From: Kiritimatiellia bacterium
GTDB taxonomy: Bacteria; Verrucomicrobiota; Kiritimatiellia; RFP12; UBA1067
Assembly (NCBI GenBank): GCA_017652705.1
Contig: JAGCAM010000079.1
Location: forward strand, 11,475 to 75,474
Length of the DNA: 64,000 bases
Direction: 5' to 3'
Each line of letters begins with the position of its first letter. The stretch's first letter is position 1. Under the pieces are notes generated by a model, which searched no databases, was not told the DNA's origin, and was given only the letters and a program-made list of their open reading frames with translations. Shown here piece by piece: positions 7,992-33,876 of this stretch. Both the position numbers and the translations under genes were made by a program.

Positions 7992-9929
7992 TCACTTCCC
8001 GGCTGCGGCCAATTCCAGCGCCTGGCGGTAGACGCGGATTTTCGCGACGATCTCGGGCCGCGTCCAATTGATTACGAACGACGGATAGTACTGCCCGGTC
8101 TTGGGCGGGAATATACGGTTGAATTCGGCAAGCGCGGCGTCAAGCCCGGCGGCCGCTTTTTCAAGATCGGCGATTGCCGCCGCAACCTTGCCGACGTCGC
8201 CGCTGGCGAGATATTCCGCCAGCGATTTCAGGCCGCGCTGGTGAAAGGTCATCGCGTCGAGATCGAGCGCCTCGAAACGCGCGCGCCCCGCCTCGGCTGC
8301 CGCCAGCCCGGCGCTCGCGGTTCCCGCGGCGGACGTCGCGAGCGCGTCTGCCGCTTCACGCATCCTCTTCGCGCCGAACCCGAAGTTGCCCACCAGTTCC
8401 GCGCCGCTCTCGCCGCCGCGTTCGGGCATGAACCGGTAGTCGAAATATATATCGTAGGGCAGATTGCAGAACTGCCACGCGCGCAGATACGCCGCGGCGT
8501 TCCCGCTCAGATAATCACGCCACGGGCCGGGATTCTCCGGATCGACCGCAGCGGCGAGACGGGCGGTCAGAGAATCCGGTGTGTGCCCGCCTTCCCACGC
8601 CAGCAGAGACATGGCGAGCATGTTCCAGTCCACCCCCTGCAGTTCGCCGCCTACATGCAGCGACATCCAGCAGGTGATGCCCCCGTCGATGTAGGCGTCG
8701 GCGTCGCCGATCAGCACCTGCGGCAGATAGGGGGTGTGCCCCCGGAAAAGTATCTTGTCGTTGTAGTACTCGAAAGTGTGCGCGTCGTCCACGCCTTCGA
8801 AGCGGCGCTGGTATTCCTTGAGCGCGCGGTGGTAGGTGCGGTTGTGTGCGCACGACGGATCGTTCAGCGCGTGGGCGTAGCAGCGCTCGCGCGGCGCGAA
8901 CAGAAGAAAGCACTCCTTCGCTGGCGCGAACAACTTCGACGGAAACATCGTGTCGTGATAGGCGATGACCGGCACGCGCAGCGACGAGCCGAGCTCCCGC
9001 ACCGCCTCCGCCTCGATATTCATCACCAGCGCGCTCTGGTCGGTGCCGGTGAAAGCGCGGCAGCGCGAACACATGCACCAGCCGCCGCCGGGCAAATCGT
9101 CAGCCCAGGCGTGTATCGCGTGGACCCCCCCGCCGACTGCCGGCTCGAGACGCTTCTTGAAATTGCGCTTCACTATGTCGCGCGTCTTCGGATTCGTCGC
9201 GCAGAAGTTCGAGTCCTTCATCCGCTTGCCGTTGAAATCCTCGGGCTGGAACATGCGGAAGAGTTCGGGTTCTTTGTCGAAAAGTTCTCGCGGCAGACAC
9301 GAGCTCATGCCGTGGCCGCCGGCCTCGGCCCTGAACCCGAGTTTTTTGAGCAGATCCATGCGCTCCGGAACGATGCGCGCGGAGTGCGCGCAGATCGAGT
9401 TGAACTTGAGCTTGGCGAGAAACGCGTACCACTCCTCGACCGTGTACGACACGCAGGCGCTCGACGCGAAAAGCCCGCGTCGTTCAAAACGCGGATTCAC
9501 CGTCTTCACCTCGTCTTTCACCGGCTTCATCCGCCGCGGCACCAGCTCCCCCTTTTCGCCCGGCGCGATAAAGGAGAAGCCGAGTTCTTCGGCGATGGTG
9601 TAGACGCCGTTGAGAACGCCTTTGCCGCACGCAGCGGCGACCGTCACACCGTCTTTGCAGGCACTCTTGACGAACCCGTCGTGGCGCACCGAGGAGACGT
9701 CGCATTGGCGCGGCGCCCCGAGCGACACGGATTCGCCTGCGCCGGCCGCCGTCCGCACCGACGCCTTGACCCCGGCGCGCCCGAGCAGCCGCGCGAGTTC
9801 GCCCGCGGCGTAGTTGGTGAGTTCGCCGCCGGTGGCGGTTATTTCGACCTTTTCAAGCGAGACGGCGTCAAAGGCAGACACCGCCCCCGCCGACAGGGCG
9901 GCGGCAAGGGCGACTGTGATTCTGTTCAT
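7992..9929 (-). CDS. Secreted DUF4838-like protein, a putative glycoside-hydrolase-like TIM-barrel.
   Basis: A signal peptide is present (MNRITVALAAALSAGAVSA). The motif GGGWCMCSRCRAF matches the three other DUF4838-like proteins in the window over an extended region. Confidence 0.55.
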   Translation of the reverse strand: MNRITVALAAALSAGAVSAFDAVSLEKVEITATGGELTNYAAGELARLLGRAGVKASVRTAAGAGESVSLGAPRQCDVSSVRHDGFVKSACKDGVTVAAACGKGVLNGVYTIAEELGFSFIAPGEKGELVPRRMKPVKDEVKTVNPRFERRGLFASSACVSYTVEEWYAFLAKLKFNSICAHSARIVPERMDLLKKLGFRAEAGGHGMSSCLPRELFDKEPELFRMFQPEDFNGKRMKDSNFCATNPKTRDIVKRNFKKRLEPAVGGGVHAIHAWADDLPGGGWCMCSRCRAFTGTDQSALVMNIEAEAVRELGSSLRVPVIAYHDTMFPSKLFAPAKECFLLFAPRERCYAHALNDPSCAHNRTYHRALKEYQRRFEGVDDAHTFEYYNDKILFRGHTPYLPQVLIGDADAYIDGGITCWMSLHVGGELQGVDWNMLAMSLLAWEGGHTPDSLTARLAAAVDPENPGPWRDYLSGNAAAYLRAWQFCNLPYDIYFDYRFMPERGGESGAELVGNFGFGAKRMREAADALATSAAGTASAGLAAAEAGRARFEALDLDAMTFHQRGLKSLAEYLASGDVGKVAAAIADLEKAAAGLDAALAEFNRIFPPKTGQYYPSFVINWTRPEIVAKIRVYRQALELAAAGK

Positions 9930-9951
9930 GTCTTATCTCCCTCAAACTGGT

Positions 9952-10575
9952 TCAGCGGCCGGAAACCCAGCCCGCGATGTCGGTCTCCGAAGCATCGGTG
10001 AGGTTTTTCGGGGTCTCGAAAGTCGCCCCCGGCGCCGACGGTTTCAGGTAATCCAGAGTTTTCCCGGCGCCGCTGCCGCCGCTCGTGAAGAACGGCACGA
10101 TTTTCTTTCCCTTCAAGTCGTGGGCCTCGAGAAAGGTGTTGACGACTGTCGGCGCGACGTACCACCATATCGGAAAACCGAGATAGACGACGTCGTAATC
10201 TGCGATGTCGGCGATTCTGGTTTTGACGGCCGGCCGCGACTTCTTGTCGTTCATCTCCACCGAAGATCGGCTCTGTTTGTTGTGCCAGTCGAGGTCTTCC
10301 CTGTTGTAGGGCTTCTCGGGGGTGATTTCGACAAGTCTGCCCCCGGTCGCTTTGGCGACGAGCGCGGCTTTTGCCTTGGTGGTGCCGGTGGCGGAAAAAT
10401 AGGCGACGAGTGTTTTCATTTTCTTTCCTTTCACTTCTTTGCCGGCGGCCGGAGCGCCTCCCGCCGCCGGCGGTTCTTTTTCAGCCCCGTTTACGTCGTT
10501 CCCGCCTGAACCGCCGCAGCCTGCCAGCGCCGCGGCCGACACCGCGAAAACAAATTCTTTTCTGCTTAGTTTCAT
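9952..10575 (-). CDS. Flavodoxin-like lipoprotein, i.e. an extracytoplasmic FMN-binding protein.
   Basis: A signal peptide with a lipobox (LAGCGG) is present, followed by a Gly/Ala/Pro-rich linker. The flavodoxin core starts MKTLVAYFSATGTTK. A GGAGGAG RBS lies 7 nt upstream. A TGATATAAT box is further upstream. Confidence 0.7.
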   Translation of the reverse strand: MKLSRKEFVFAVSAAALAGCGGSGGNDVNGAEKEPPAAGGAPAAGKEVKGKKMKTLVAYFSATGTTKAKAALVAKATGGRLVEITPEKPYNREDLDWHNKQSRSSVEMNDKKSRPAVKTRIADIADYDVVYLGFPIWWYVAPTVVNTFLEAHDLKGKKIVPFFTSGGSGAGKTLDYLKPSAPGATFETPKNLTDASETDIAGWVSGR

Positions 10576-10610
10576 CTGACTTCTCCTCCGGTTTTACTGA
10601 GTGTATTATA

Positions 10611-11060
10611 TCATTGTCTGCGGCCTGAAATCAACACCAGTCGGCTTTCGGCAAGGAAAAACCCGAGGATCACCGTCCAGTACACGGTAAGCCCGGTATA
10701 GGCGCAGACCTCGTCCCTCCGCTCCCCGACGAGGACGACGAGAAGCGGGTTCAGGACCTTGCGGATCGGCTCGATGAAGCCCCTGAACGCCTTCATCGCC
10801 TCCGCCCATGCCGAGCGCAAACAGCATCGTGACGCGCGAAGCCAGATGCTGCCAGAACGCGGGCTCCGGTCCGCGCAGGATATCAAGGCAGAAAAGCCGC
10901 CCCGCCGGATAGCTGTGGGGCCGGGGAAAGACCGACGGAACCACGCCCTGCCCCATTCCAGAAATCCGGCCCCCGGCCATGTCGCGGCTCCGGGCTTTCG
11001 ACATTTACCCGGTAGTTTTCTGCATGGTATTCCTTTTCGCTTGCAAACATTCCAGGTGTC
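10611..11060 (-). pseudogene. Decayed gene remnant. Coding-like segments are split over three reading frames. No family was recognised.
   Basis: The reverse-strand frames give MTPGMFASEKEYHAENYRV... then ...FWQHLASRVTMLFALGMGGG... then ...MKAFRGFIEPIRKVLNPLLVVLVGERRDEVCAYTGLTVYWTVILGFF, each ending in a stop. No single intact ORF exists. Confidence 0.2.
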
Positions 11061-22100: not shown

Positions 22101-24380
22101 GGCGCCCTTCTCGTCCATGCGGAAATATTCGGGGTGAACGTCGAAAAGGTTGCGCGGCAGCAGCCAGCTGGCGGCGTGGATTTCATAGCCGATGTCGATG
22201 CCGAGGGCTTTGGCGCGGTCGATGAGGGCGCGGTAGCCGGGCTCTTTCAGTCTGGCGAGTGTTTTATCGAGCGCGACTTCGGCCTGGCCGCCGCCGCCGG
22301 GATGGATGGAAAGATTGTGGAGACCGAGATTCACCGCGCGGTCCACCCAGCGGTCGGAGAGTTCGTCGGTGCCGATTACGAGGGATGTTTTAAGCGCCCC
22401 GGCCGGCGGAGCGGCCGGCTTTTTTTCACGGAACCAGACCTGCATGTCGTTGCCGGGCTGGCGGTGGTCCCACGCGAAGTACGGTATCAGTTTCAGCCCG
22501 TTGGAAGCTTTGAGCGCGGGGAAGGTCTTGTCGCCGATCACGATGGTGTCGTCGGTGAAAGTGGCGTCTTCGGGAAGAACGGCGTCGTAGGCCGCGCCGC
22601 CGTTGTCGCAGCCTTCGGCGCAGTAGAGCATGGGGCCGCGTTCGACGGCGAGACGGCCGAGGTCGTCGACGACGGCGCGGTGGGCGCGGATACGCTTGAC
22701 CGGCATGGGGAAATTGACTTCGACTTTGTCGCCGGCCTTCCATTTTCTGTCGATGTCGATGTAGCCGTCTTTGCCCGGTGCGGGGTCAAGAGCGGCGCCG
22801 TTCACCGAGAGAGTGATTTCCTTGACGCTTGCGGGCACGGTCTGGGTGTACAGGTCGCCGGGCACCGGTTCACCTTTCGCCCAGCCGGGAACGCGGAGTT
22901 TTAGCGTGAACCGCTTTTCGGCGGCCGGGCTGACGGCCAGCGTTGCGCGGCCGTTCCACGGATATCCCGTGTCGCATTTGAACTTGACCCCTTCCACCTC
23001 GGCTTCGCCCTGCATGACGAGGTTCCAGAATATGTTCGCGCCGTCGGTCGCCCACGCGAAGGACGGTATCTGGGGGATGAAGCGGACGTCATTCACCGGG
23101 CAGCAGCTGCAGCCGAACCACTTCGAACGTCTGTAACCTCCTTTGCAGGCGAGCGGGTTGGGGTAGAAGTACTCGTCGCCGGTGAGTGACACGCCGGAGA
23201 GGAATCCGTTGTAGATGACCCGCTCGAGTATATCGACGTATTTGGATTCGCCGGAAAAGCGGAACATACGTTCGTTCCACAGGGCGTTGGCGATCGCGGC
23301 GCAGGTTTCCAGATAGGTCACGCGGTAGTCGTTGGGCAGCAGATAGTCGCGCTCGAACGCCTCGCCGCGGGGGGTTCCGCCGACGCCGCCGGTGAGGTGC
23401 AGCTTGCGACCAGAAACGTTGAGCCAGATGGCGGAAATCGCGTCGAGGTACGCCTTGTCGCCGGTGAGGGCGGCGACGTCGGCGACACCGCAGTACAGGT
23501 AGCCGGCGCGCACAGCGTGGCCGACCGCCTCGCGCTGGAGGACGACGGGCATGTGATCCTGGATGCCCGCGCCCGGGGCGACGATGGGGTCGACCGGTTC
23601 ACCGCCGGGGCCGACCGGCCGCCCGTCTTCGAGAGACCTGCCGCGGCCGCGCATTTCAATGAAGTGGCGCGCGAGGTTGAGATAACGCTTCCTGCCGGTC
23701 ACCCGGTAGAGCTTGGCGAGGGCGAGCTCGATTTCCTCATGGCCGGGCGCGTCTTTGAGCTGGGTCGGGTCGGGCCCGAACACGCGGCAGAAAAGATCGG
23801 CGGATTTTACGGCGACGTCGAGGAAATTGCGCTTGCCGGTGGCCCGGAACCACGCGCAGGCGGCTTCGATCATGTGCCCGTTGTTGTAAAGTTCGTGGCT
23901 GGAGCCGATGTTGGACCAGCGAACGGGGCCCATCATGCCGCTGCTGCCGCCGCCTTTGCTGAAGTGCCAGTGGCCGAGCGTTCTGGCGGTGTAGAGGTAG
24001 CCGTCTAATTCCTGCGCTTTGGCGAACTGACCGATAAGCCAGTCGCAGTATTTTTCAAGTTCGGGGTCGGGGTGGTTGGCGAGCACGTAGGCCGCCCCTT
24101 CCACCACCTTGAACACGTCGGAATCGTCGAAGGGAATTCCGCCGAACTTGCCGGCGCGGGCGGCGGCGTTGGTGAAGTTGGCGATGCGCGGCGTCTCGTT
24201 GCATTTGTCGAAACAGTTTTTGAGGGTGGAAAGACGGTTCGTCTCCAGCCGGTCGTACCAGAAGCCGCCGGTGACTCTGACCTTGGTCATGTCGGCGGAG
24301 CGGATCGGGTAGTCGTTGGCGGCGGCGGCCGCAGCGGCGGCAACGAACGCTGCGACGGCGACAGAGAGTTTCTTTTTCAT
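19131..24380 (-). CDS. Giant secreted three-module glycosidase: GH127/DUF1680-like beta-L-arabinofuranosidase-like module, then DUF4838-like module, then GH2 module.
   Basis: The 1749-aa ORF carries a signal peptide. The N-terminal roughly 650 aa contain the consecutive-Cys motif FGCSCCPVND characteristic of GH127. The middle contains GGVCKCEKCRGF and flanking DUF4838-like sequence. The C-terminal roughly 700 aa show the GH2 sugar-binding domain (VPHDWAIAGPFN, YLEFDGV), a TIM barrel (NAVRTSH, WSLGNE) and a C-terminal beta domain. Confidence 0.75.
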   Translation of the reverse strand: MKKKLSVAVAAFVAAAAAAAANDYPIRSADMTKVRVTGGFWYDRLETNRLSTLKNCFDKCNETPRIANFTNAAARAGKFGGIPFDDSDVFKVVEGAAYVLANHPDPELEKYCDWLIGQFAKAQELDGYLYTARTLGHWHFSKGGGSSGMMGPVRWSNIGSSHELYNNGHMIEAACAWFRATGKRNFLDVAVKSADLFCRVFGPDPTQLKDAPGHEEIELALAKLYRVTGRKRYLNLARHFIEMRGRGRSLEDGRPVGPGGEPVDPIVAPGAGIQDHMPVVLQREAVGHAVRAGYLYCGVADVAALTGDKAYLDAISAIWLNVSGRKLHLTGGVGGTPRGEAFERDYLLPNDYRVTYLETCAAIANALWNERMFRFSGESKYVDILERVIYNGFLSGVSLTGDEYFYPNPLACKGGYRRSKWFGCSCCPVNDVRFIPQIPSFAWATDGANIFWNLVMQGEAEVEGVKFKCDTGYPWNGRATLAVSPAAEKRFTLKLRVPGWAKGEPVPGDLYTQTVPASVKEITLSVNGAALDPAPGKDGYIDIDRKWKAGDKVEVNFPMPVKRIRAHRAVVDDLGRLAVERGPMLYCAEGCDNGGAAYDAVLPEDATFTDDTIVIGDKTFPALKASNGLKLIPYFAWDHRQPGNDMQVWFREKKPAAPPAGALKTSLVIGTDELSDRWVDRAVNLGLHNLSIHPGGGGQAEVALDKTLARLKEPGYRALIDRAKALGIDIGYEIHAASWLLPRNLFDVHPEYFRMDEKGARCRDKNFCFSNPEAMNIAGKRAVELAKALYGGNRRYCLWLDDVHGGVCKCEKCRGFSASDQQLIFANAIVTELRKFIPDAELCYLAYADAINPPEKVKPVKGVFLEYAPIKRDLGRPLADQNNGETKPLKALIEKFGSAGSRVLEYWFDNSLYSHWTSPVKLFRQAKDVVAADVEYYRLLGFEEISSFAVTLGDRNYVPLWGEPDLSAFARENVDSAFRSISLDGDAWEFRRGGSSAWSKVRVPHDWAIAGPFNHTNDYATGKLSWCGKGDYRRSFVWRKSGKPGERVYLEFDGVMARPKVKVNGKDAGGWDYGYASFILDVSALVVNGENSLEVSADTTDHKSRWYPGGGIYRSVRLVTRGDGHAIPGSVAITTPKISAAEATVNVSWRTLSGPKSASFKILKPRLWDVDDPYLYEYAVAGEKFRYGVRSVSVTTNGLFLNGRRLQIHGVNLHSDLGPLGMAFDRDAAKRQLLCMRDMGVNAVRTSHNCPAPQLLDLCDELGILVWDECFDKWDGTAGRLPGENLEEYVERNLKAFVRRDRNHPCVFTWSLGNEIYFNCEEYSQGTSRERCDRFRKAVLSEDSTRPVGIGCCYVKAVEKGDLDGLDLNGWNYGGSYRHMHARNPAMPLFYSESASAFSDYGFYRVPFAGNEEREGWSNTNNTEHGEWFRADVKNWKVDGYDQIAATWGDIADVEFDRMERDRYVCGEFVWSGIDYIGEPTPYTLWFLGASEFGSHYVKAAGRSFTVADTSRSSYFGAADICAIPKDRWHLYRSHWNKKAETVHILPHWNWNDHKGTKVPVYVYTSGDEAELFLNGRSLGRRRKGVVERNPALTNRYYEVCAKYRLRWFDVPYRPGELKAVAYRGGEKIGEAKMKTAGAPKAIRLTRDPYSAEGSDLVFVQIDAVDSKGNRSPVSDAKFDVLLKGPGEIAAVGNGDPRSMVSFKSLKGHSLWFGKAVVAVRRYRGTGDAPELTVTAPGLKPGTIKIAGR

Positions 24381-24410: not shown

Positions 24411-24902
24411 TCACAGATGTTTGATGTTGATTTTGCCTGTGGCGAGTCCCGGGGCCGATGCCGTCAGGGTGGCGGGGCCTTTGCCGGTGCGCCGAAGGAT
24501 TACCAGGGCCTTGCCGTGGAAAAGACGGTTGCCGGCGACGTCCTTGACCGAGTCGTAATCGCGTGGGTCGCCGTTGCCTACCGCTTCTATGACGGCGTCG
24601 CCGCGGACCGCGAAACCGACTCGGTCGCCGGCGTCGGGAACGCGCGTACCGGCTGCGTCCGCTTTCGCGGCGGTTTTCACGCTGGCCACGCCGATCTTCC
24701 TGCCCCTGAGATAGCGGACCGCCCTGAGTTCGCCCGGTTCCCACCGCACGTCAAACCAGCGCAAACGGTAGCGGCCCATAATCTTGTAATACGGGTTGTC
24801 GCGGCCTTTCCCGTTGAACTTGGCGACGTCGCCGCAGTCGCTGTGCAGCGGATAGTCGAGGCGGAGCTTCCGTTTCATTGGCCTTATTTTGTTTTGTCGC
24901 AC
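24411..24902 (-). pseudogene. 3' remnant of a GH2 gene (C-terminal beta-sandwich domain only).
   Basis: RYRLRWFDVRWEPGELRAVRY...AVGNGDPRDYDSVKDVAGNRLFHGKALVILRRTGKGPATLTASAPGL aligns with the last roughly 150 aa of the GH2 module of the giant protein at 19131..24380. The upstream GH2 domains are absent. Confidence 0.5.
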
Positions 24903-24912: not shown

Positions 24913-27669
24913 TCATTGCTCGACGAATTTCAGTACGCCGAAGGCGTTGAGATCGCTGTTGAAATTGCCGAACCTGTTGTAAAGCCGCGAAAGTTCCCAC
25001 ACCGAACCGGGGGTGCGCTTCGACTTGTCTTTGAGCCAGGCGTCGGCGATTCTCAGCCGCGCGATGTTGCCGTTCCAGTGGATGCCGCCCTGCGTGGTCG
25101 GTATTTTCGCGTCGGCGAAGAAACCGAGGTCGCTGTACGGTATGTAGATTTCGACCGACCAGGAGTCTTTGTTGATTTTCGCCCCGCTCTTCAGCCCCTT
25201 CGGTTCCCACTTCTTGGTCTGAACCCGCAACTGGTTGACGGCGTCGATCCAGAGTTTGAAATAGACGCCTTCAAGCTCGCCGGTGGGGTCGACGAAAATT
25301 TCAAGACAGTCGTTGCCCCACCAGTCGCCGGCCGGGTGCGAAGTCTGCAGGCGGTCGGGGGTCTTCTCCATGCAGGTGATGCCGAACACCACGCCTTGCG
25401 AAGTCCATACCGCCTGCACGTAAGTCGGATATTTCGCCACGGTGTTGGTGCGGCTGCCGCTGCCGTCGATACCCGCGAGCGCGCAGGAGAGCGGCTCGGC
25501 GAGCTTCCAGCACGGGTCGGAGAGGTCGCCGTCGATTTTCGGAAGTTCGGCGGCCTTGCGCATGTGCAGGTCGGGGAAGGCCTTGTTGTTGGCGTACTCC
25601 CAGCTTTCCCTGAAAAACCGCTCGAAGGGTTTGGCGTAGTAGGCGAGACGGTTCGAGGCGGCCGCATCGTCGGCGAGAGCCCTGAACGACTCTTTGATTA
25701 TGCGTTCCATCTCCTCCACCTCGGCGCGCGGGTAGCTGATGCCGAAAACGTTTTTGCTGGTGACGCTCGGCCGCTTCCACTGCCGTGCCCACCCTTTCTC
25801 CTGCATGTCGATAAGTTTGCGCATCGGCGCGGCGGCCTTGCCGAACATCCGACTGGCGAATTCGTCGTAGACGTCTTTCGCCTCGAAGCCGGGGTTCCAC
25901 ATCGCCCGCACCCAGACGTAGGCGGAGAGCCCGAGCCGGTCGACCGGATACCCCCCGTTCAGGAAAGATCCGCAGATCACGCCCTTCATCCTGCGGTAGA
26001 ATTCAACAGCGGTGCCGCCGAAAACGTAAGGGGCGCAAGTCCGGTCGGCCGGCCAGCAGATGTAGTGCCAGTTCTGCACGGGGTTGCCGGTCGCCTTCGC
26101 CCATTGGCGCATGAGCTCCTCCTCGTGTCTGCGGGCTGATTCCTGGGCGAGCAGCGCGAGGCCCGGCATGGTGCACAGAAACGCGTCCACGTTGCCTTCG
26201 GCCGTGAGATCGAGACCTTTGGGCACGTCGCAGGTGTTGATGTAGGGAAGTATGGAAATGCGCCAGTCGGGATATTTCCGCTTCATCCATTTGGCGAGTT
26301 CCTTGGTGAAATACCCCCAGATTATCGGCGAAGCGTCGCCCGTGGGCGCGGCTGACTTGTCCACGAGTTTTTTGCAGAAATCGCAGTGGCAGACGACGGC
26401 GGCGTCGTACTGCGAAACGGTTACGGTTTTGCGCTGCACGTCGACGGGGTCGCCCATAAAGCCGCGGCGTTTGCCCTCGACCGTCAGGTTGATGTGCTCC
26501 TTGTAGGTCTGCAGCGTGCGGGGGTTGCCGTAACAGAGCATGGCGGTGCGGGCGCGTTCGCCGTTTTCGGACAGGGCGAAGATTTCCGGTCGCCCCGTCC
26601 AGCGGCTCGGCTTGTAACCGAGATTGGGGTCGACGTGCCAGTAGCTCGGGGTGTGGACCCGGTGCGATGACTGGTGGGCGTCGCCGAATTTCCAGCCGCG
26701 GTGACCCGCTGCGAATTCGGTGCGGAATTCATAGACCGGTTTGTCCGACCAGTTGAACCGTGGCAGGGCGAGACCTTCCGTTTTGATAACGAGTTCGCCG
26801 ATCTTGCGGTCGGGGTAGTACTGGCGTACGCCGAGTATCCGTTCGGCGAAGTCGTAGACGGCGTAGCCGGAGGCGGTCGCATGCGCGCCGATGAGGAAAA
26901 CGTCCCCTCCTTTGGTGAGACAGCGGAAGGCGTGTGCGCCGACGCCCCACCGGGTGTCGGGGGTGCCGGGGCGGGTGACGCCGGCTTCGCGGGCGGCGAG
27001 GGTGTCGCCGATGTAGATCGCGCCGCCGCCGGTGTAGGCGGTGTTGGTGCCGAGATGGAGAACCGGCGGCTTGGCGCCGGTCATCTTTTCGATTATTTCA
27101 GCGAGCCACACCGCTTCGCCGCGCGCTTCGGCCGCCACGATCGGCATGCGGGCGACGCCGTCGGCGACGACCACGACCGGTTCCCCGCGAGGGGCCGAGA
27201 ACGCGGTGAGCGGGGTCAGGTCTTTGGCGCGCGGATTGCCGGGCGCGAGCTGCGCTCTGGATCCGTCCTCCGCGGTGACGAAACTCCCTTTCCGTTCCGC
27301 GGCGGCGGCCGAAGTCTTGGTGAAGTAGTTGGTGGCGAGCGCGGTACGCGACGTCCGGCGGTACGCCTCGAAGAGAACTGAATACTCACCGGCCGGCAGA
27401 TCTTCGACATGCAGCGAAAGCGCATTGCGCCCGACCCGCAAGGGAACCGACTGCGTGCGGAGCATCCTGCCGGACGCGTCGCGCAGCGTCATTTTCACGC
27501 TGTCGGCGGTGCAGACCGGAACCTTTGCCTCGAAGGCGACGTAGACGTCGTCCTTGCCGAGCGTCTGCCGGTCGCCCGAGGCGCCGGTAAATCCGACGGC
27601 CGGCGCCGCGGCGGCGGCGGCGGAAAGGATTGCCGCGGCGGCGAAAAGAACCTGTGCTGTCTTTGTCAT
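24913..27669 (-). CDS. Secreted DUF4838-like protein with a C-terminal CBM9-like (DOMON-type) carbohydrate-binding domain.
   Basis: A signal peptide is present. VVCHCDFCKK and the flanking region are paralogous to the 7992, 19131 and 30401 proteins. The C-terminal motif PKIDGDLSDPCWKLAEP...YFKL is CBM9-like. Confidence 0.6.
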   Translation of the reverse strand: MTKTAQVLFAAAAILSAAAAAAPAVGFTGASGDRQTLGKDDVYVAFEAKVPVCTADSVKMTLRDASGRMLRTQSVPLRVGRNALSLHVEDLPAGEYSVLFEAYRRTSRTALATNYFTKTSAAAAERKGSFVTAEDGSRAQLAPGNPRAKDLTPLTAFSAPRGEPVVVVADGVARMPIVAAEARGEAVWLAEIIEKMTGAKPPVLHLGTNTAYTGGGAIYIGDTLAAREAGVTRPGTPDTRWGVGAHAFRCLTKGGDVFLIGAHATASGYAVYDFAERILGVRQYYPDRKIGELVIKTEGLALPRFNWSDKPVYEFRTEFAAGHRGWKFGDAHQSSHRVHTPSYWHVDPNLGYKPSRWTGRPEIFALSENGERARTAMLCYGNPRTLQTYKEHINLTVEGKRRGFMGDPVDVQRKTVTVSQYDAAVVCHCDFCKKLVDKSAAPTGDASPIIWGYFTKELAKWMKRKYPDWRISILPYINTCDVPKGLDLTAEGNVDAFLCTMPGLALLAQESARRHEEELMRQWAKATGNPVQNWHYICWPADRTCAPYVFGGTAVEFYRRMKGVICGSFLNGGYPVDRLGLSAYVWVRAMWNPGFEAKDVYDEFASRMFGKAAAPMRKLIDMQEKGWARQWKRPSVTSKNVFGISYPRAEVEEMERIIKESFRALADDAAASNRLAYYAKPFERFFRESWEYANNKAFPDLHMRKAAELPKIDGDLSDPCWKLAEPLSCALAGIDGSGSRTNTVAKYPTYVQAVWTSQGVVFGITCMEKTPDRLQTSHPAGDWWGNDCLEIFVDPTGELEGVYFKLWIDAVNQLRVQTKKWEPKGLKSGAKINKDSWSVEIYIPYSDLGFFADAKIPTTQGGIHWNGNIARLRIADAWLKDKSKRTPGSVWELSRLYNRFGNFNSDLNAFGVLKFVEQ

Positions 27670-27683: not shown

Positions 27684-29771
27684 TCAGAACTTCACGGAAG
27701 TCGAGAGCGTATCGACGAAACCGGGCTGTCCGCCGCCGACGTAAACCGCGGTTTCACCCGAGGGCACCGTCGCTTTGCCGTCTTCGCCGAAAACCGCGAA
27801 CTGCTCGTTCAGCAGCGTGAAGGTGACGTTCCGCGACGCACCGGGGGCGATGCGAACGCGCGTGAACCCCTCAAGATGGTGCAGACGGCGGTCGCCGGCC
27901 GCGGCGGGGGCTTTCAGATAGAGCTGCACGACTTCGTCGCCGGCGAGCTTGCCGGTGTTTTTCACGTTGACGGTGATCTCTGCGCCGGACGCCGTCTTTT
28001 TGGCCCGGATGTCGGAGTAGGCGAAAGTCGTATAGGAAAGTCCGTAACCGAACGGATACGCCGGCTTTTTCGTGGCGTAGCGGTAGGTGCGCCCGACGAG
28101 GGTGTAGTCGGCGAACGCGGGAAGGTCGTCGTAGGATTTCGGGTAGGTGATGGGGAGCCTCCCGGCCGGGTTGTTTTTGCCGAATATCGTGCGGGCGACT
28201 GCGCGCCCCCCCTGTTCACCGGGATACCATGCGAGAATGACCGCGTCGGAATTTCTGACGACCGGCTCGAGATCGAACGGGCTGCCGCCGAAGATGACCG
28301 AGACTACGCACTTGCAGCTCTTGCGGTAGCCCTCAAGCAGTTTCAACTGGTTCTGGGGCAGCGAATAGGAGGTGCGGTCGCCGCCGGAATTGTTGACGCT
28401 GCACCCCTCCTCGCCTTCGTCTTCGGCGGTGATGCCGAGACAGACTATCGCGATGTCGCTGCCGTGGGCGCCTTCGGGCACGCCGATTACGCGAACCCCC
28501 GGGCCTGCCTCTTCGACCACCCCGGAGAAGACTGTTGACGGACGCGCAGCGTAGCCGCAGTAGTTGCCGATAAGAGCCACTTCGTCCATCGCGCGCGGAC
28601 CGACCACGCCCACGCAGACGGCTTTCTTGGGGTCGAACGGCAGTGCGCCGTTGTTGGAAATCAGCACGAGAGATTTCTCGGCGGCCTCAAGCGCGAGATC
28701 GCGGTTGGCCTCGGTCGCGACGTCCTTTTCGCCGAGGTGATCCCACGGCGTGGAACCGTTTCTGTCGAACTGGCCGAGCAGAACGCGGGTGTTGAGAAGC
28801 TGCACCAGCGGTCGCTTGAGCTCGTCGCCGGTGACCTTGCCCTCTTTAATGGCGTCGCGGAGGCAGGCGTAGGTGCCTTCCGAACAAAGGTCGAGACCGG
28901 CCGCGATCGCCGCTTTGCACGCCGCCACCCTGTCGGCGGTGAAATGATGTCCGGTGTGGATGTCGGCGACCGCGCCGACATCGCTGACGATATGGCCTTT
29001 GAAGCCCCATTCGCCGCGGAGGATGTCCGTGAGCAGTTCGCGGTTGGCGCAGCACGGCACGCCGTTGAGGGCGCTGTAGGCGCCCATGAACGCCTCGACT
29101 TTCGCGTGCATCGCCAACGTGCGGAACGCCGGCAGATAGTATTCGCGGAGATCCCGCGCCGAAACCTTGGCGTTGAACCCGTGGCGCAGACGCTCGGGCC
29201 CCGAATGCACCGCGAAGTGTTTGGCGCACGCCGCGGTTTTCAGATACTTTTTGTCGTACCCCTGCAGCCCGCGGACGTACGCTCCGCCCATTACGCCGGA
29301 GAGGTAGGGGTCTTCGCCGAACGTCTCCTGGCCGCGCCCCCAGCGCGGATCGCGGAACATGTTGACGTTGGGGCTCCACAGGGTAAGCCCTTTGTAGATT
29401 TCACGCTGGTCGCGTTCGCGGAAGAGGTTGTACTTGGCGCGCGTCTCGGTCGAGACGACGTCGCCGACGCGCTCCTGCAAGCCGGAGTCGAACGAGGCGG
29501 CCATGCCCATCGACTGCGGGAACACCGTGGCGAGACCGGCGCGGGCGATGCCGTGCAGCGCCTCGTTCCACCAGTGGTAGCGGGGAATCCCGAGCCTGTC
29601 GACGGCGGGGGAGTCCATCATCAGCAGATCGACGCGTTCCTCTGGGGAGAGTTGCTCGACCATCGTCCGCGCGCGCAGCTCGCATTCGGAACGGCGGTAG
29701 TCGGAAGGTATGGCTGCGGCGGATGCCGCGGCGAACGCGGCGATGGAACCAGCGGCTATTTTCATGTTCAT
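27684..29771 (-). CDS. Glycoside hydrolase family 3 (beta-glucosidase/beta-xylosidase, BglX-like), secreted.
   Basis: The 695-aa ORF has a signal peptide. GH3 N-domain motifs include WNEALHG and KHFAVHSGPE. The catalytic region reads GFKGHIVSDVGAV. A C-terminal alpha/beta domain and FnIII-like domain follow. Confidence 0.9.
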   Translation of the reverse strand: MNMKIAAGSIAAFAAASAAAIPSDYRRSECELRARTMVEQLSPEERVDLLMMDSPAVDRLGIPRYHWWNEALHGIARAGLATVFPQSMGMAASFDSGLQERVGDVVSTETRAKYNLFRERDQREIYKGLTLWSPNVNMFRDPRWGRGQETFGEDPYLSGVMGGAYVRGLQGYDKKYLKTAACAKHFAVHSGPERLRHGFNAKVSARDLREYYLPAFRTLAMHAKVEAFMGAYSALNGVPCCANRELLTDILRGEWGFKGHIVSDVGAVADIHTGHHFTADRVAACKAAIAAGLDLCSEGTYACLRDAIKEGKVTGDELKRPLVQLLNTRVLLGQFDRNGSTPWDHLGEKDVATEANRDLALEAAEKSLVLISNNGALPFDPKKAVCVGVVGPRAMDEVALIGNYCGYAARPSTVFSGVVEEAGPGVRVIGVPEGAHGSDIAIVCLGITAEDEGEEGCSVNNSGGDRTSYSLPQNQLKLLEGYRKSCKCVVSVIFGGSPFDLEPVVRNSDAVILAWYPGEQGGRAVARTIFGKNNPAGRLPITYPKSYDDLPAFADYTLVGRTYRYATKKPAYPFGYGLSYTTFAYSDIRAKKTASGAEITVNVKNTGKLAGDEVVQLYLKAPAAAGDRRLHHLEGFTRVRIAPGASRNVTFTLLNEQFAVFGEDGKATVPSGETAVYVGGGQPGFVDTLSTSVKF

Positions 29772-30397
29772 TTGACTTCTCCGTGTGGGATTTTAACCTT
29801 TGCGGGTTGAAAAATCATTTGAAGGCCACTTTCGCCGGCGCAAGGCCGTCGGAACTCGCGGTCAGTTCGGCAGCCCCTTCCGCACTCGATGCCCGCCCCC
29901 GGGTACCAGCGCGAAGCGTGGTTGTAGGTCGAACACGCGACGACGACGTGGTTCGACTTTGCCGCCAGCAGCCCGGTGACGTCCATCCGGAAACTCATGT
30001 AGCCGTAGTCCCAGCCGCCGGCCAGCCGCCAGTTGACGTAGCCTTTCGCGTCGGCCATGACGCCGTCGAATTCAAGGTAGGCTTTGTCGCCGTTCTCGAG
30101 CAGCGCCCAGTCCGCCGCCGGAATGTCGTCCACCCACCTGCGGTACATGTAGGCCCCCTTCCACGGCAGCTTGCCGGTGACCGGCCCGGCCAGGGGGTTG
30201 AACGGGCCTTCGATCGCGGCGTCGTGAGGCACTTCGACCTTTCGCCATCCTTCGGTCGGATCCGCCGCCTGGATGTTGCGCAGGTGGTCGCCGTTCAAGT
30301 CGCGGATGTACAGCCATCCGCCGTCGAGCGGAACCGTGCCCGCACCGGCGGCGAAGACGCCGCCGAGAACGGCGAGCGGAAAAATGATCTTTCGCAT
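29768..30397 (-). pseudogene. Truncated or frameshifted GH2 N-terminal sugar-binding domain fragment with its own signal peptide.
   Basis: VPHDAAIEGPFN...YLEFDGVMADAKGYVN...GGWDYGYMSF...RWYPGAGI matches the GH2 N-domain of the giant protein. The frame then degenerates (ECGRGCRTDREF...) and stops 3 bp before the GH3 start. Confidence 0.5.
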
Positions 30398-30400: not shown

Positions 30401-33400
30401 TCAGTTCTCGCGGAAGATGAACTTTGAAAAAGCTCCCGGATCGCTGTTGTAGCCGTTGCCGCGCGTATGCAGGCGGGACATCTCGGTGGTGTGCGGGGTT
30501 CGCTTGTTGAGCGGACGGATCGTCTTGTCGCCGCGGCGGAGGCGGATGAAGTTCCCCGTCCAGGACATGCCCCCTGAAGTCGTCGGGTGCACCGCGTCTT
30601 TGTAGAGCGCGATCATCGGCTTGTACGGCACGTAAAGTTCGATGCTCCACGACTTCTCGTTCTTCGCGATCGCGCAGCGGACGCCTTCCGGCCCCTGGGC
30701 CTTCTTGAAGCCGTCGTACCACTCGAACTTGCCGCTCGCGTTGATAATCACGCGGCCGAAAGCGCCGTAGTCGCCGCCGAGGTCGATCAGCGCTTCGACG
30801 CAGTCGTTGACCCAGTAGTTGCCGGTGGGGCCGTCGTTGCAGAGGTTCGCCATGTCGCTTTCGCGGCAGTCCATGCCGAACGTGACTGCGGTCGGCGTCC
30901 ACACCGCGCGTATCGACGTGCCCTCTTTCGGCGTCGTGCCCTCCTTGCGCGCGCCGGTGAACTCCTGCGCTTCGGCCAGCTTCCAGCAAGCGTCGTCGAG
31001 CTTGCCGTCGATCACGGGGTCCTGCGACACTTTCTGCATCATGAGCGGCGCAAAGGCGCTGCCGGCGGCGTATTCGGCCGATTCCTTGAAAAACTGCGTG
31101 AAGCCGCCTTTGTAGTAGGCGATGCGCTTCATGAGCAGCTCGTCGCCGGCGCAGAGCTGCTCTGCCTCGGCGAAGAGCCCCTCCATCCTCAGAACTTCCG
31201 CCCGCGGATAGGAAATCGTGTAGATGTTCCGGTTGTTGACGCGGGAGACCTTCCACTGCCGCTCCCAGCCTGTCTCCTGCAGGCGGACGATCTCGCGCAG
31301 CTGTTTCGCCGCGGGCCCGAACATGCGGTCGGCGAAGGTGTCGTAGACGGAGTCGATGTTCAGCTCGGGGTTCCACAGCAGGCGCATCCAGCAGTAGGCC
31401 GAAAGCACCAGCCGGTCTACCGGGTAACGACCGTTGAGAAAGCTGCCCGCTGTGATTTCGCGCGTGTCGCGGTAGTGGCGCTGGGCCGTCTTGGCGAAGA
31501 TAAACGGCGCCTGGCAGGTCTCCGCCGGCCAGCAGATGTAGTGCCAGTTCTGCACCGGCCGACCCGTCACCCGCGCCCAGTCGCGGATGAGTTGCTCCTG
31601 GAACTCCTTCACCGGCTTCTCCTTCAGCATGGCGAGACCGGGCATCGTGCAGAGAAACGCCTCGACGTTGCCCTCTTCGACGAAGTCCACCCCGTCGGGT
31701 ATGTCGGTCGTGTTGTGGTACGGCAGAATGACTATTTTCCAGCCGGGCAGTTCCTTCTTCGCCCACTTGGCGAGTTCTTTCGTGAAGTAGCCCCAGAGCA
31801 CGTTCGAAAAGCTCACGCGGCTTTCGGCGATGTTCTCCTGCGGGTGTCTGGCGAGTATCGCCTTGCAGTATTTGCAGTTGCAGAAAACGGCGATGTCCCA
31901 CTGCGAAACGGTGATGCACTTCGCCAGCGGTGCGGTGATGTCGCCGCGTGGCGAACCGCTGGCGATTTCGGCGAGGATGCGCTCCTTGTACGTTTCGAGG
32001 GTGCGGGGGTTGCCGTAGCAGAGCAGCGGCATCGTCGCCCGTTTGCCGTCGTCGGTCAGCGCGAAGATTTCCGGCCGCGTGAACATGAAGTTGAGGTTGG
32101 TGTTCCTGTTCCACGCCCCGGGCGCATGCACGTGGTGCTCTCCGCAGTGGCTGTCGCCGTTTTTCCACACCCGGCACCATTCGTTGCCTTCGTACGGCCA
32201 GAGGTCGCGCTTGGCGAAAACCGGCTTGTCGGAGTAACTGAACGCCGGCAGCGAAAGCCCGTATGTTTTCACCACAGTGCGGCCGCCGTTCTTGACGTCC
32301 CAGTATTCGCGCACGGCGAGGGCGCGCTCCGCGAAGTCGGTCGCCGCGTAATCGCACCGCGCGCCGCAAAGGTAGACCGACCCGTCTTTCACGCACACCT
32401 TGAACCCGTGCGCGTCGACGCCCCAGCGCTCGCGCTGGTAGGTGGCGAGCCCCGCGCGGCGCGTCGCCGCTACATCGCCTATGTAGATCGCCGGGGCGTT
32501 GGTGACCGGTCTGCCGCCGCACTCGCGCACGATCCTGAGCCTGGCGCCGGTCATGTCCTCGATCACCGAGGCGATGAACTGCGCGGCGAACTGCCCGTCA
32601 CGCGAATCTTCGCAGACGATGTCCATCGCCGGTATCGAGCCGAGAGCGACGGTCGCGCCGGCGCCGCCCAGCCAGCGGAAATCTTTCACCGGCGTCAGAT
32701 CGCGCGCGTTCACGTTCATCGGGGCGCGCTGCGCATGATAAACCCTGCGGCGGACGTCGTCGACGCGCACCACCGCCCCGCCGCGCTTGCCCGATTCCTC
32801 CGCGGCGGCCATGAGCGCGAAGATCTCGTCGGTTTCCTCGGAAGGGAAAGGCTTCACCCCGGTTTTGAAAAACTTGAGTATCTCCTCGAGCATCGGCGCG
32901 TAACCCTCGTATCCCCCGAGATCGACCACCCCCTTGTCGGCGGTGAACGCCTGGCCGGAGTAATTCCACATCCCGGGCCCGCGCATCATGCGCAGACCGC
33001 CGAATCTGCCGTCGCGCCATCTGACGGCCACGAAATCGTTGCTTTCGTTCGAAAAGCAGCTGACCGATTCGGCACCGACCCCCATCACCGCCACGAGCGG
33101 CTCGAAACCGTGGATGCCGTACCAGGTGAACCGCGAGTGGGTGCGCTCAAGCGGCGAGGGAGCAGCGTAGTTGACGCCGCGCACCACGCCCAGCTCCCCT
33201 TTGCGCGCCGCCTGCACCTTCGAAGTCCACCGCAGCGCGGAACAGCTGAAGAAATTGGCGTTGACCCGGCGCGCCTCGTCGAATATCCGGGTGGCGGACT
33301 GGTAGTCGCTGGCGAGGGGCTTGTCGATGAACACCCGCTTGCCGCTCGCGAAAACCTCCCGCGCCTGGGCCAGATGCTCGCGGCCGTCCTGCGTTTCAAG

Positions 33401-33721
33401 CAGCACCACGTCGCACTTCGCCAGCACGTCTTTGACGCTCGGCTCCATTTCAACGCCCATCTCCTTCATCTGCCCGATGTATTTCGGGTAGTTGTTCGTC
33501 ACCGCGGGTATCGTGCGCGAGCCGTACTTGTACGCGGCCACGACCCGGAAATCTTTGAATATCTCGCGGTCGCGCTTGACGTTGATGTGCCTGGTGAACT
33601 CGGTGGCGTGCGACGTGTCGACGCCGATGACGCCGATCTTGATTTCGCCGGCCGTCGGGGCGGCCGCGGCCGCCGCCGCCGCGAGAAGTGCGATTGAGCG
33701 AAGTGGTCTGTCCATTTTCAT
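30401..33721 (-). CDS. Fusion protein: Gfo/Idh/MocA oxidoreductase, then DUF4838-like domain, then CBM9-like domain. It has a Sec-type signal peptide.
   Basis: After the signal peptide (MKMDRPLRSIALLAAAAAAAAPTAG) comes a Rossmann Gfo/Idh/MocA domain (IKIGVIGVDTSHATEF...). The middle section contains AVFCNCKYCKAILARHPQ and WGYFTKELAKWAKKELPGW, which are nearly identical to the 24913 protein. The C-terminal PVIDGKLDDACWKLAE motif is CBM9-like. The ORF track's start at 33757 adds 12 residues. Confidence 0.7.
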   Translation of the reverse strand: MKMDRPLRSIALLAAAAAAAAPTAGEIKIGVIGVDTSHATEFTRHINVKRDREIFKDFRVVAAYKYGSRTIPAVTNNYPKYIGQMKEMGVEMEPSVKDVLAKCDVVLLETQDGREHLAQAREVFASGKRVFIDKPLASDYQSATRIFDEARRVNANFFSCSALRWTSKVQAARKGELGVVRGVNYAAPSPLERTHSRFTWYGIHGFEPLVAVMGVGAESVSCFSNESNDFVAVRWRDGRFGGLRMMRGPGMWNYSGQAFTADKGVVDLGGYEGYAPMLEEILKFFKTGVKPFPSEETDEIFALMAAAEESGKRGGAVVRVDDVRRRVYHAQRAPMNVNARDLTPVKDFRWLGGAGATVALGSIPAMDIVCEDSRDGQFAAQFIASVIEDMTGARLRIVRECGGRPVTNAPAIYIGDVAATRRAGLATYQRERWGVDAHGFKVCVKDGSVYLCGARCDYAATDFAERALAVREYWDVKNGGRTVVKTYGLSLPAFSYSDKPVFAKRDLWPYEGNEWCRVWKNGDSHCGEHHVHAPGAWNRNTNLNFMFTRPEIFALTDDGKRATMPLLCYGNPRTLETYKERILAEIASGSPRGDITAPLAKCITVSQWDIAVFCNCKYCKAILARHPQENIAESRVSFSNVLWGYFTKELAKWAKKELPGWKIVILPYHNTTDIPDGVDFVEEGNVEAFLCTMPGLAMLKEKPVKEFQEQLIRDWARVTGRPVQNWHYICWPAETCQAPFIFAKTAQRHYRDTREITAGSFLNGRYPVDRLVLSAYCWMRLLWNPELNIDSVYDTFADRMFGPAAKQLREIVRLQETGWERQWKVSRVNNRNIYTISYPRAEVLRMEGLFAEAEQLCAGDELLMKRIAYYKGGFTQFFKESAEYAAGSAFAPLMMQKVSQDPVIDGKLDDACWKLAEAQEFTGARKEGTTPKEGTSIRAVWTPTAVTFGMDCRESDMANLCNDGPTGNYWVNDCVEALIDLGGDYGAFGRVIINASGKFEWYDGFKKAQGPEGVRCAIAKNEKSWSIELYVPYKPMIALYKDAVHPTTSGGMSWTGNFIRLRRGDKTIRPLNKRTPHTTEMSRLHTRGNGYNSDPGAFSKFIFREN

Positions 33722-33876
33722 GACTCCGGTTAGTGGTTGTGGCTGTTCGATTCTCAAAGTCCAGAGCTGCAGACTCTGCCGTTCTGAAAGATATTTGTCG
33801 CGGAAACCGCGGGTGTGAAGCCAGCCTTCGGCGATGTTGGGCTTTTCAACATACCGCTCTCATCGCCGCACCGCCG

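Follow-up and report, generated by a model that had tools for sequence, protein, structure and literature searches.

The question raised by this locus is whether a set of proteins that carry the domain DUF4838, some of them fused to other sugar-active modules, represents a new kind of enzyme in the oxidative breakdown of glycans. The window, by which we mean the whole 64,000-nucleotide stretch of contig JAGCAM010000079.1 from a Kiritimatiellia bacterium that was analysed, is GC-rich (about 63%) and encodes four such proteins on its minus strand. An earlier note on this DNA had described them as a paralog family of no assigned activity with an invariant C-x-C-x2-C motif, and had proposed that they form a new enzyme class acting on oxidized glycosides at a metal site. 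Our analysis leads to a different answer: the four segments are probably divergent, uncharacterised members of the DUF4838 glycosidase superfamily, and their cysteines probably hold a structural zinc ion and do not mark a new oxidative class.

The four open reading frames (ORFs) lie where the earlier note had placed them, and all four proteins carry an N-terminal signal sequence of the general secretory (Sec) type. The first, p7992 (7992..9929, minus strand), is a secreted single-module DUF4838 protein of 645 aa. The longest, p19131 (19131..24380, minus strand), is a secreted protein of 1749 aa in which a DUF4838 barrel stands between a GH127 and a GH2 module. In p24913 (24913..27669, minus strand; 918 aa) the signal peptide leads into a short N-terminal region, after which come DUF4838 (aa 150-700) and a CBM9-like domain (aa 701-918). 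The last, p30401 (30401..33757, minus strand), has 1118 aa when counted from the TTG at 33757, which is the basis of our residue numbers; NCBI places its start 14 codons later, at M15 (33715), which gives 30401..33715 and 1104 aa, and the protein is 100% identical to the 1104-aa NCBI entry 'DUF4838 domain-containing protein [Kiritimatiellae bacterium]'. Comparison with profile hidden Markov models (HMMs), the check that the earlier note had asked for, confirms DUF4838 in every one of these segments, with scores against Pfam PF16126 (gathering threshold 26.6 bits) of 36.6 bits for p7992, 84.6 for p24913, 90.1 for p30401 and 54.7 for p19131. A scan of every ORF in the window with the family profile returned these four and no fifth member, and NCBIfam holds no model matching the DUF4838 parts of the four proteins.

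The extended conserved block that was said to unite the four proteins reflects a true homology of their domains, but it is much shorter between some of them than between others. BLAST aligns p24913 with p30401 at 44% identity over about 800 aa and p7992 with the middle module of p19131 at 33% identity over 209 aa, whereas between these two pairs it sees only a block of about 125 aa, PE.F...CxCxxC, with E values from 1e-4 to 1. Judged by these alignments, the proteins are two old and deeply separated pairs and not one recent set of paralogs. We refer to the pairs as subtype A (p24913 and p30401), with the signature '...V-S-Q-W-D-x4-C-x-C-x2-C', and subtype B (p7992 and p19131), with the signature '...W-x-D-D-x4-5-C-x-C-x2-C-x2-(L/F)-S-x-S-D-Q'. 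Against the A2 family profile p7992 scores 449 bits, and its close representatives include P0157, P0159 and P0176.

The description of DUF4838 as a domain with no assigned activity is out of date, because two families that contain it have been characterised. It is the catalytic domain of GH163, founded on BT1035 of Bacteroides thetaiotaomicron (PMC10570127), an endo-beta-N-acetylglucosaminidase that cuts the bond between N-acetylglucosamine (GlcNAc) and mannose in the GlcNAc-beta1,2-Man units of complex N-glycan antennae (PMC10570127, PMC10154615). It is equally the catalytic domain of GH185, whose founder, Sp_0475 of Streptococcus pneumoniae, is a 6-sulfo-beta-GlcNAcase of the exo type with a retaining, substrate-assisted mechanism in which mutagenesis implicates Q174, H227, D309 and Y436 (PMC10570127). 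The similarity network of Bains et al. (J Biol Chem 2023), drawn from 3,826 sequences, contains many uncharacterised clusters (PMC10570127). When a profile of the four window domains was run against 1.84 billion cluster representatives, it gave 9,765 hits at E ≤ 0.001, each standing for a cluster at 50% identity, and 306 at E ≤ 1e-30.

Both subtypes are predicted to fold as triose phosphate isomerase (TIM) barrels. The AlphaFold model of p24913 aa 150-700, made from a 52-sequence alignment, reaches a mean predicted local distance difference test score (pLDDT) of 94.6 and a predicted template modelling score (pTM) of 0.93, and the model of the p19131 module is a complete eight-stranded barrel (pLDDT 89.5, pTM 0.87). 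The closest solved folds are those of GH115, GH20, GH84 and GH67, with GH42 in addition for the short form, and a search of the PDB with the family profile finds GH67 (2e-13), GH115 (8e-11), GH20 (3e-8) and GH84 (2e-7). These hits came from family profiles only, since phmmer searches of the PDB sequences with p24913 and p7992 directly returned nothing relevant. The DUF4838 superfamily, with GH163 and GH185 in it, is a distant relative of GH20, GH84, GH67 and GH115, and subtype A is built from an N-terminal GH20b/GH67N-like domain, a (beta/alpha)8 barrel, a helical region and a CBM9-like domain.

Among 52 diverse members the near-invariant residues are, in p24913 numbering, R316 on strand beta1, H339, G370, R372, C379, D422, C427, C429, C432, Y476, W591 and Y536, the last of which is invariant. 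In the p24913 model D422 comes right behind strand beta4, and the strand at 382-387 (model numbering) ends in Y536. Subtype B has a pair of aspartates at the end of beta4 (D277-D278 in p7992, D801-D802 in p19131), which may resemble the catalytic doublet of GH84. We infer an active site on the C-terminal face of the barrel, where the Asp at the end of beta4 (D422, D278, D802 and, as the candidate by sequence in p30401, D621) would be the general acid/base, assisted by the conserved His after beta3 and the invariant Tyr at the end of beta7. This set of His, Asp and Tyr would be the same constellation as the residues that mutagenesis supports in GH185: the distances from His to Asp and from Asp to Tyr are 83 and 114 residues in p24913, and 82 and 127 in Sp_0475 (H227-D309-Y436); no counterpart of Q174 was identified. 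To judge from these residues and the models, each of the four domains most likely works as a glycosidase. True membership of GH42 was also considered and rejected, as Pfam GH42 (PF02449) matches none of the window proteins, the catalytic residues of GH42 are absent and GH115, GH20 and GH84 resemble the long form more closely.

As a default we tentatively assign to the four domains a substrate-assisted activity of the N-acetylhexosamine (HexNAc) type, which we regard as quite possible: both characterised DUF4838 enzymes cleave beta-GlcNAc, and the family-invariant His, Asp and Tyr are as in GH185. The alternative to HexNAc is a different sugar, from the side chains of pectin or arabinogalactan. 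Stated more fully, this alternative holds that the domains are glycosidases for a uronic acid or for a neutral pectin or arabinogalactan sugar, possibly inverting or with a carboxylate nucleophile, and we judge it rather unlikely; several observations nevertheless lend it support or otherwise weigh against our interpretation. The match to the mutated GH185 residues rests on spacing and conservation, not on alignment. On the Pfam model the window proteins (37-90 bits) score far lower than canonical members such as P0207, which has two copies and 475 bits in total, so the window subtypes could have diverged in activity. Their partners are GH127, GH2, GH28-like and GH3 enzymes here and GH78, GH10, feruloyl-esterase-like proteins, aldose 1-epimerase and UxaE elsewhere, and such partners favour plant or algal wall glycans over HexNAc-rich ones. 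The best matches of the long form in both sequence and fold are the alpha-glucuronidases GH67 and GH115. A conserved oxidoreductase gene upstream of p30401, together with the oxidoreductase-like module within that protein, leaves room for a redox link, to which we return below. The GH20 motif H-x-G-G-D-E is absent from all four proteins by regular-expression search, and in subtype B the invariant beta7 Tyr is preceded by an acidic residue ('(E/D)-Y-W'), at the place where clan GH-A, as in GH42, has its nucleophile (PMC8573354). This last feature is not kept in subtype A, which reads 'W-H-Y' there, and the GH67 and GH115 matches depend chiefly on the N-terminal domain and on the region of beta8 rather than on catalytic residues.

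The cysteine motif, which had been reported with its flanking residues for all four proteins, occurs exactly once in each of them, with those same flanks, at residues 285 (p7992), 427 (p24913), 626 (p30401) and 808 (p19131). It is found in no other stop-free stretch of at least 300 aa in the window (35,008 aa scanned), for which our own arithmetic gives a chance expectation of about 0.1 occurrences at about 1.5% Cys. The signature is Cys4 and not the triad that had been described, because a further conserved Cys, in a 'C-x2-N-P' loop 40-48 residues before the triad, is kept in all four proteins; the sites are C580, C626, C628 and C631 in p30401, C379, C427, C429 and C432 in p24913, C768, C808, C810 and C813 in p19131, and C243, C285, C287 and C290 in p7992. 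Nor is the motif peculiar to this locus. It is present in 141 of the 150 nearest representatives, and nearly all of these 141 also have a Cys 39-48 residues upstream; several of the nine without it are short and cover no more than the C-terminal half of the profile. All 120 canonical PF16126 proteins, a sample gathered with one domain of P0207, have both the triad and the upstream Cys. With C-x-C-x2-C in 261 of 270 sampled members overall, the near-universal motif is a hallmark of the family, in the sense of an empirical criterion drawn from this analysis and not of a published one.

The four cysteines very probably bind a metal, which upholds that part of the earlier proposal. The likely model for the site comes from GH42 beta-galactosidases, in which a 'Cys-Zn' cluster is formed by Cys113, Cys153, Cys155 and Cys158, with the acid/base Glu148 five residues before the triad, and in which the zinc is stabilising and not catalytic (PMC8573354). 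A search of all PDB sequences with a barrel-only profile has as its top match residues 91-162 of the GH42 enzyme 3tts, at an E value of 0.21 that is not significant alone, and the alignment is partly driven by the cysteines themselves, which counts against the comparison. In this alignment 'PE.FR.D..G.R' falls over 'PDVLRVDYEGRKR' and the first Cys over that of 'NSCPNS', while 'W.DD' falls over 'VSNE', whose N-E is the GH42 acid/base, and the triad over 'CYCDNC', column for column. In the DUF4838 proteins the triad follows the beta4 Asp by 5-7 residues and would stand next to the active site, and a Zn(Cys)4 clamp would tie the beta3 loop to the beta4 loop as in the GH42 enzymes. By this analogy we infer that the four cysteines are most likely a structural zinc clamp and not a catalytic or redox centre.

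It is in our view improbable that the cysteines instead make up a metal centre with a catalytic or redox role, hold an Fe-S cluster or pair as two disulfides. The four invariant cysteines do stand directly beside the putative acid/base, the window proteins are exported, so that disulfides are chemically possible, and zinc raised activity as well as stability in one GH42 enzyme (PMC8573354). Against this, the Cys4 signature is equally conserved in members without a signal peptide. The standalone barrel-only members carry none and start directly at strand beta1, so they should be cytoplasmic, and because many members are of this apparently cytoplasmic kind a metal is favoured over disulfides. 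The spacing C-x39-48-C-x-C-x2-C, moreover, lines up with the non-catalytic, stabilising site of GH42 (PMC8573354). Basal activity of the GH185 enzyme was kept after treatment with ethylenediaminetetraacetic acid (EDTA) and no metal enhanced its rate (PMC10570127), a result that bears on the cysteines only as far as Sp_0475 has them; the GH185 paper makes no mention of cysteine or zinc (PMC10570127).

The place of DUF4838 among glycan-degrading modules is clearest in p19131, where it does lie between GH127 and GH2 in a single polypeptide, as had been claimed. Its GH127 module (22428..24305, minus strand; aa 26-651) scores 330.5 bits against Pfam PF07944, and with 73.6 and 73.2 bits for the HMMs of the middle and C-terminal domains it is a complete GH127. 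It contains E358-x-C360 and C424-x-C426-C427, which, by analogy with HypBA1, would be the zinc and nucleophile site of GH127. The GH2 module (19134..21398, minus strand; aa 995-1749) has Pfam matches over aa 998-1745 to Glyco_hydro_2_N, Glyco_hydro_2_C, DUF4982 and Glyco_hydro2_C5; its 'GNEI' (1313-1316) and 'YSES' (1390-1393) presumably hold the N-E and S-E of the GH2 catalytic motifs. Among NCBIfam models p19131 scores 623 bits for GalB and 377 bits for aceric acid hydrolase, both below cut-off. The DUF4838 module between GH127 and GH2 (21450..22397, minus strand; aa 662-977, with the Pfam match at aa 727-895) is a TIM barrel alone, whereas the other three proteins have an additional N-terminal domain.

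This reduced form raises the possibility that the p19131 barrel is a non-catalytic spacer or binding module and that the polypeptide has two activities only. The absence of the N-terminal domain of the long forms and the occurrence of the architecture as a singleton speak for such a role, which we nonetheless consider doubtful. Over its whole length the module can be aligned, at 32-47% identity, with a set of standalone proteins that have 308-364 aa, and it keeps all 22 invariant columns of that set, including the His, the D-D pair, Cys4 and the Tyr, and its barrel is complete in the model. We would therefore retain the reading of the domain as a glycosidase here also, in which case p19131 would be an exo-glycosidase with three activities. 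The standalone DUF4838 TIM barrels of about 310-330 aa (P0208, P0212, P0227, P0228 and others, alignment A3) are a widespread and apparently cytoplasmic family in their own right, in which the His, the D-D pair, Cys4, the Tyr, an Arg and an Asp are invariant and for which no characterised member was found; they are sometimes fused to an aldose 1-epimerase, CBM9 or pectate-lyase-like domain.

In p30401 the order of modules is also as described, with DUF4838 downstream of a Gfo/Idh/MocA-like module in a protein with a Sec signal, and all four domains do occur in glycan-degrading proteins. The Gfo-like module (32723..33652, minus strand; aa 36-345) scores 36.2 bits (aa 39-167) against Pfam GFO_IDH_MocA (PF01408; cut-off 24 bits). 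The DUF4838 region (31043..32695, minus strand; aa 355-905, with the Pfam match at aa 500-824) consists of an N-terminal alpha/beta domain, the TIM barrel and a helical region, and is followed by the CBM9-like C-terminal domain (30404..31042, minus strand; aa 906-1118). The CBM9 part of the fusion stands only by homology: against CBM9_1 (gathering threshold 23.4 bits) p24913 reaches a sub-threshold 16.4 bits and p30401 has no match. The label is supported transitively, because the C-terminus of p30401 is homologous to proteins that pass the threshold; BLASTP aligns it at 39% identity with the C-termini of p24913, P0150 and P0151 (E 1e-46 to 1e-53) and at 27% with the CBM9_1 region of P0207 (E 1e-9), and P0150, P0151 and P0207 score 33, 25 and 84 bits. 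The F5_F8_type_C domain found at the C-terminus of the GH163 founder has no Pfam match in the four proteins.

The proposal that DUF4838 is a new enzyme acting, through a Cys3 metal site, on 3-keto glycosides delivered by the fused or adjacent Gfo oxidoreductase turns largely on this module, and we find the proposal very unlikely. By sequence the module is a true but atypical relative of the Gfo/Idh/MocA family. Its best PDB profile match is 3ezy (1.8e-10), and the others include AFR, YjhC and DgpA (7xr9, 6.5e-7); DgpA is a C-glycoside 3-oxidase, and to that extent the match speaks for the proposal. The Lys of 'DKP' and the His of 'WYGIH' are kept, 'IDKP' is invariant in 27 modules from varied fusion contexts, and the invariant polar residues would suit an active enzyme. 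The glycine loop, however, reads G-V-I-G-V-D-T-S-H (G-x-x-G-x-D-T-S-H) and not GxGxxG, strand beta2 ends in 'AAYKYGS' without a terminal acidic residue, and the D-x3-H motif has Trp in place of its Asp ('W-Y-G-I-H'), so that binding of nicotinamide adenine dinucleotide or its phosphate, NAD(P), is uncertain. The signal of p30401 is of the Sec type and no twin-arginine translocation (Tat) motif was found in it, unlike the periplasmic oxidoreductase AL3 of the known route. A reading of the module as GH109-like was dropped, as the PDB searches gave generic Gfo/Idh/MocA dehydrogenases and no match named GH109.

Nor does the module belong to DUF4838 in particular. A unit of about 300 aa recurs at 39-66% identity in many proteins, in N-terminal, middle or C-terminal position, and is not specific to DUF4838 because it is also attached to GH28, PF16490, GH39 with a flavin adenine dinucleotide (FAD) oxidoreductase, a GH36-like domain, GDPD and WD40 propellers; conversely, it is found in none of the 269 other sampled DUF4838 proteins. 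Relatives in metagenome-assembled genomes (MAGs) of Lentisphaerales, Victivallis, Planctomycetales, Pirellulaceae, Phycisphaerales and Armatimonadetes are likewise without it. The Cys motif and the His, Asp and Tyr are kept equally in DUF4838 proteins that have no Gfo partner, including canonical PF16126 members. In p30401 the module would then be a promiscuous accessory unit. Its carriers in our set (P0008, P0009-P0017, P0014, P0016, P0018 and P0019-P0029) share the invariant stretches G..G.DTSH, LE.NDGR.H, FIDKP, WYGIHG.E and FF.TG..P...EET.

The gene order around p30401 speaks for some link. Immediately upstream lies a gene that Pfam identifies as a canonical Gfo/Idh/MocA oxidoreductase (33877..35232, minus strand), Tat-exported with the N-terminus 'DRRNFIKGG', and its orthologs stand upstream of the fusion genes at the loci L016 (54% identity) and L001 (48%), so that the order is conserved. 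Gfo genes also adjoin DUF4838 genes of subtype A in MAGs of Lentisphaerales, Pirellulaceae and Planctomycetales (loci L003, L004 and L005), whereas there is none next to the DUF4838 genes of L006, L007, L008, L017, L020 and L021 or beside p24913. Of 11 lineages about 4 show such adjacency, where the density of Gfo genes, which make up roughly a tenth of the genes here, would predict about 19%, so that chance could account for the figure; single-protein scans gave six loci in genomes and five in metagenomes, which are few for neighbourhood statistics. In the published 3-keto route the periplasmic Gfo oxidoreductase AL3 is Tat-exported and holds its cofactor tightly, and the bonds are broken by a DUF1080 protein and by a TIM barrel of the sugar-phosphate-isomerase-like kind (10.1101/2024.03.25.586180). 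The window encodes genes of these kinds separately from DUF4838, at 33877-35232, 41186-42700, 43876-44868, 44918-46315 and 58558-61373, and its three canonical exported Gfo enzymes have Tat motifs of the form RRxF, GxG loops and beta2 ends of the 'CDVD' type. The idea of a new oxidative class is thus not borne out: the fused module is attached to unrelated enzymes as well and has neither GxGxxG nor a Tat signal, the known components of the route are encoded elsewhere, and the Cys motif is family-wide.

The 3-keto gene set is itself present in several copies within the 64 kb. At two places (43876-46315 and 58558-61373, both minus strand) a xylose-isomerase-like TIM barrel is paired with a Gfo/Idh/MocA oxidoreductase, with Tat motifs on both of the paired oxidoreductases and on the barrel protein at 43876, and 41186-42700 (minus strand) encodes a double DUF1080 (3-keto-disaccharide hydrolase) protein. 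Locus L001 shows partial synteny with 33877-37286 of the window, as both contain the Tat-Gfo ortholog, a fusion of DUF4838 and the Gfo-like module, GH127 and, at a greater distance, TsaE; its layout differs in that GH127 has a gene of its own and the Gfo-like module comes after DUF4838.

A more specific form of the oxidative idea would take the trio of Kiritimatiellae, the Tat-exported Gfo enzyme, the Gfo-like module and subtype-A DUF4838, as a periplasmic oxidative glycosidase for C3-oxidised glycosides in which the Gfo-like module is a new redox or lyase unit, and this we hold to be highly doubtful. If it were true, the DUF4838 barrel would act by elimination or hydrolysis and not by a Koshland-type or substrate-assisted mechanism, and the 'G-x-D-T-S-H' module would be cofactor-independent or unusually loaded and recruited by many carbohydrate-active enzymes (CAZymes) of the Planctomycetota-Verrucomicrobiota-Chlamydiota (PVC) group.

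Of the two fusions that the earlier note had called unprecedented, only one is. The fusion of a Gfo-like module, DUF4838 and a CBM9-like domain is real, conserved in a small clade and rare: full-length orthologs (P0002-P0005) match p30401 at 54-71% identity over 98% of its length, and the fusion of Gfo-like module and DUF4838 occurs in at least five clusters and in a permuted variant, P0014, in which DUF4838 is followed by the Gfo-like module and a GH36-like domain, with a GH127 gene next. Because these orthologs come from independent assemblies, different entries in ENA, the fusion is neither an artefact nor unprecedented. At locus L002 a DUF4838-only gene comes after the fusion gene, and the window has DUF4838 genes of both these kinds. 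The architecture GH127-DUF4838-GH2 is a genuine singleton, found among the best 120 of 511 hits only in the query's own cluster (P0030), although fusions of GH127 to GH2, GH51, GH43, GH32, GH95, sulfatase and other modules are common. It is scarcely conceivable that either fusion, or both, arose by mis-assembly or by an error that removed a stop codon, as the origin of the window in a metagenome-assembled genome and the lack of a second triple fusion might suggest, since the identical 1749-aa product is present on three assemblies (NCBI, ENA ERZ28654704 and Logan SRR12529136), the Gfo-DUF4838 orthologs come from different samples, the internal modules have no signal peptides or start-proximal features, the linkers are short or of low confidence, and the GC content at third codon positions (GC3) of the ORFs is uniformly high at 0.80-0.86. 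Modular fusion is in any case normal for the family, because elsewhere DUF4838 is joined to esterases, GH78, a GT4-type glycosyltransferase, aldose 1-epimerase, pectate-lyase-like folds, SLH and CBM9. The fusions probably reflect a habit of PVC-type bacteria of stringing CAZyme modules on one secreted polypeptide.

Several neighbouring genes are of interest beside these proteins. A GH3 gene (27684..29771, minus strand; Pfam Glyco_hydro_3, Glyco_hydro_3_C and Fn3-like) lies between the two subtype-A genes in the same gene string. It and the DUF4838-CBM9 gene p24913 are bracketed by two orphan pieces of GH2. The first (29768-30397, minus strand) is a 209-aa ORF with a signal peptide and the GH2 sugar-binding domain only, 49% identical to aa 995-1112 of p19131; the second (24411-24902, minus strand; 163 aa), an ORF for which the ENA and Logan assemblies likewise have a gene call, contains the GH2 C-terminal domain 5 only and is 40% identical to aa 1595-1746 of p19131. 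The pieces look like the two ends of another GH2 gene in which an insert of about 5 kb has displaced or split the catalytic core, and if so they are evidence of local shuffling of modules. Further along, two adjacent giant ORFs (46361-51379 and 51420-55709, both minus strand; 1672 and 1429 aa, GC3 0.85-0.89) have almost no Pfam annotation; the former has a CBM9_1-like stretch at its N-terminus only, and the latter a weak match to the CBM9-like part of the DUF4838 family profile.

These results open no new enzyme class on present evidence, and their interest lies in the family itself. DUF4838 is large, with 9,765 clusters, of which two members are characterised, and the window samples two uncharacterised subtypes, one of them in a form reduced to the barrel, which occurs on its own too, as an apparently cytoplasmic protein of about 320 aa. 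As they stand beside enzymes of the pectin and arabinogalactan type, these subtypes are places to seek new specificities and possibly new CAZy families. For work on GH163 and GH185, the Cys4 signature would pin the position of the catalytic Asp, and it bears on the conditions of expression and crystallisation with respect to zinc and reductant.

Among known systems the 3-keto route resembles the window in gene content, as all three of its protein kinds (AL/BT1-3) are encoded in the window and a Tat-Gfo gene lies directly before p30401. DUF4838 is, however, no described component of the route, whose lyase belongs to another TIM-barrel family with a catalytic Glu and Co2+ (10.1101/2024.03.25.586180), and the Gfo protein of the route has a Tat signal whereas the relative fused to DUF4838 is atypical and has none. 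With the beta-hexosaminidases GH20 and GH84 and the alpha-glucuronidases GH115 and GH67 the window domains share the N-terminal alpha/beta domain, the (beta/alpha)8 barrel and helical C-terminal elements; they differ in an identity of only 10-15% and in the absence of the catalytic motifs of those families (H-x-G-G-D-E among them), and a Cys4 site is mentioned in none of the descriptions of these enzymes that were consulted.

Within the superfamily, the likeness to GH163 BT1035 lies in the same Pfam catalytic domain, a secreted or surface location and a C-terminal module of carbohydrate-binding type. BT1035 has an F5/F8 type C domain where the window proteins have a CBM9-like domain or nothing, and the window genes have CAZyme partners of the plant-wall type, not N-glycan loci, and match the Pfam model at only 37-90 bits. 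The sulfate-binding Arg of GH185 has no mapped counterpart in the window proteins. Members of the sequence cluster that defines GH185, cluster 3 of Bains et al., are cytoplasmic and lack a signal peptide, a feature shared by the standalone barrel-only relatives and not by the secreted window proteins, which in addition carry CBM9-like, Gfo-like, GH127 and GH2 modules. The closest counterpart of the cysteine site is in GH42 (Thermus A4, 1kwg/1kwk; Bacillus circulans, 3tts), where Cys-x39-Cys-x-Cys-x2-Cys has its triad five residues after the beta4 acid/base (PMC8573354) and where the fold is highly similar to the barrel-only module. GH42 belongs to clan GH-A, with an N-E acid/base and an M-E nucleophile, and its Pfam model misses the window proteins; the Cys cluster is present in some GH42 members only, whereas in DUF4838 it is almost universal.

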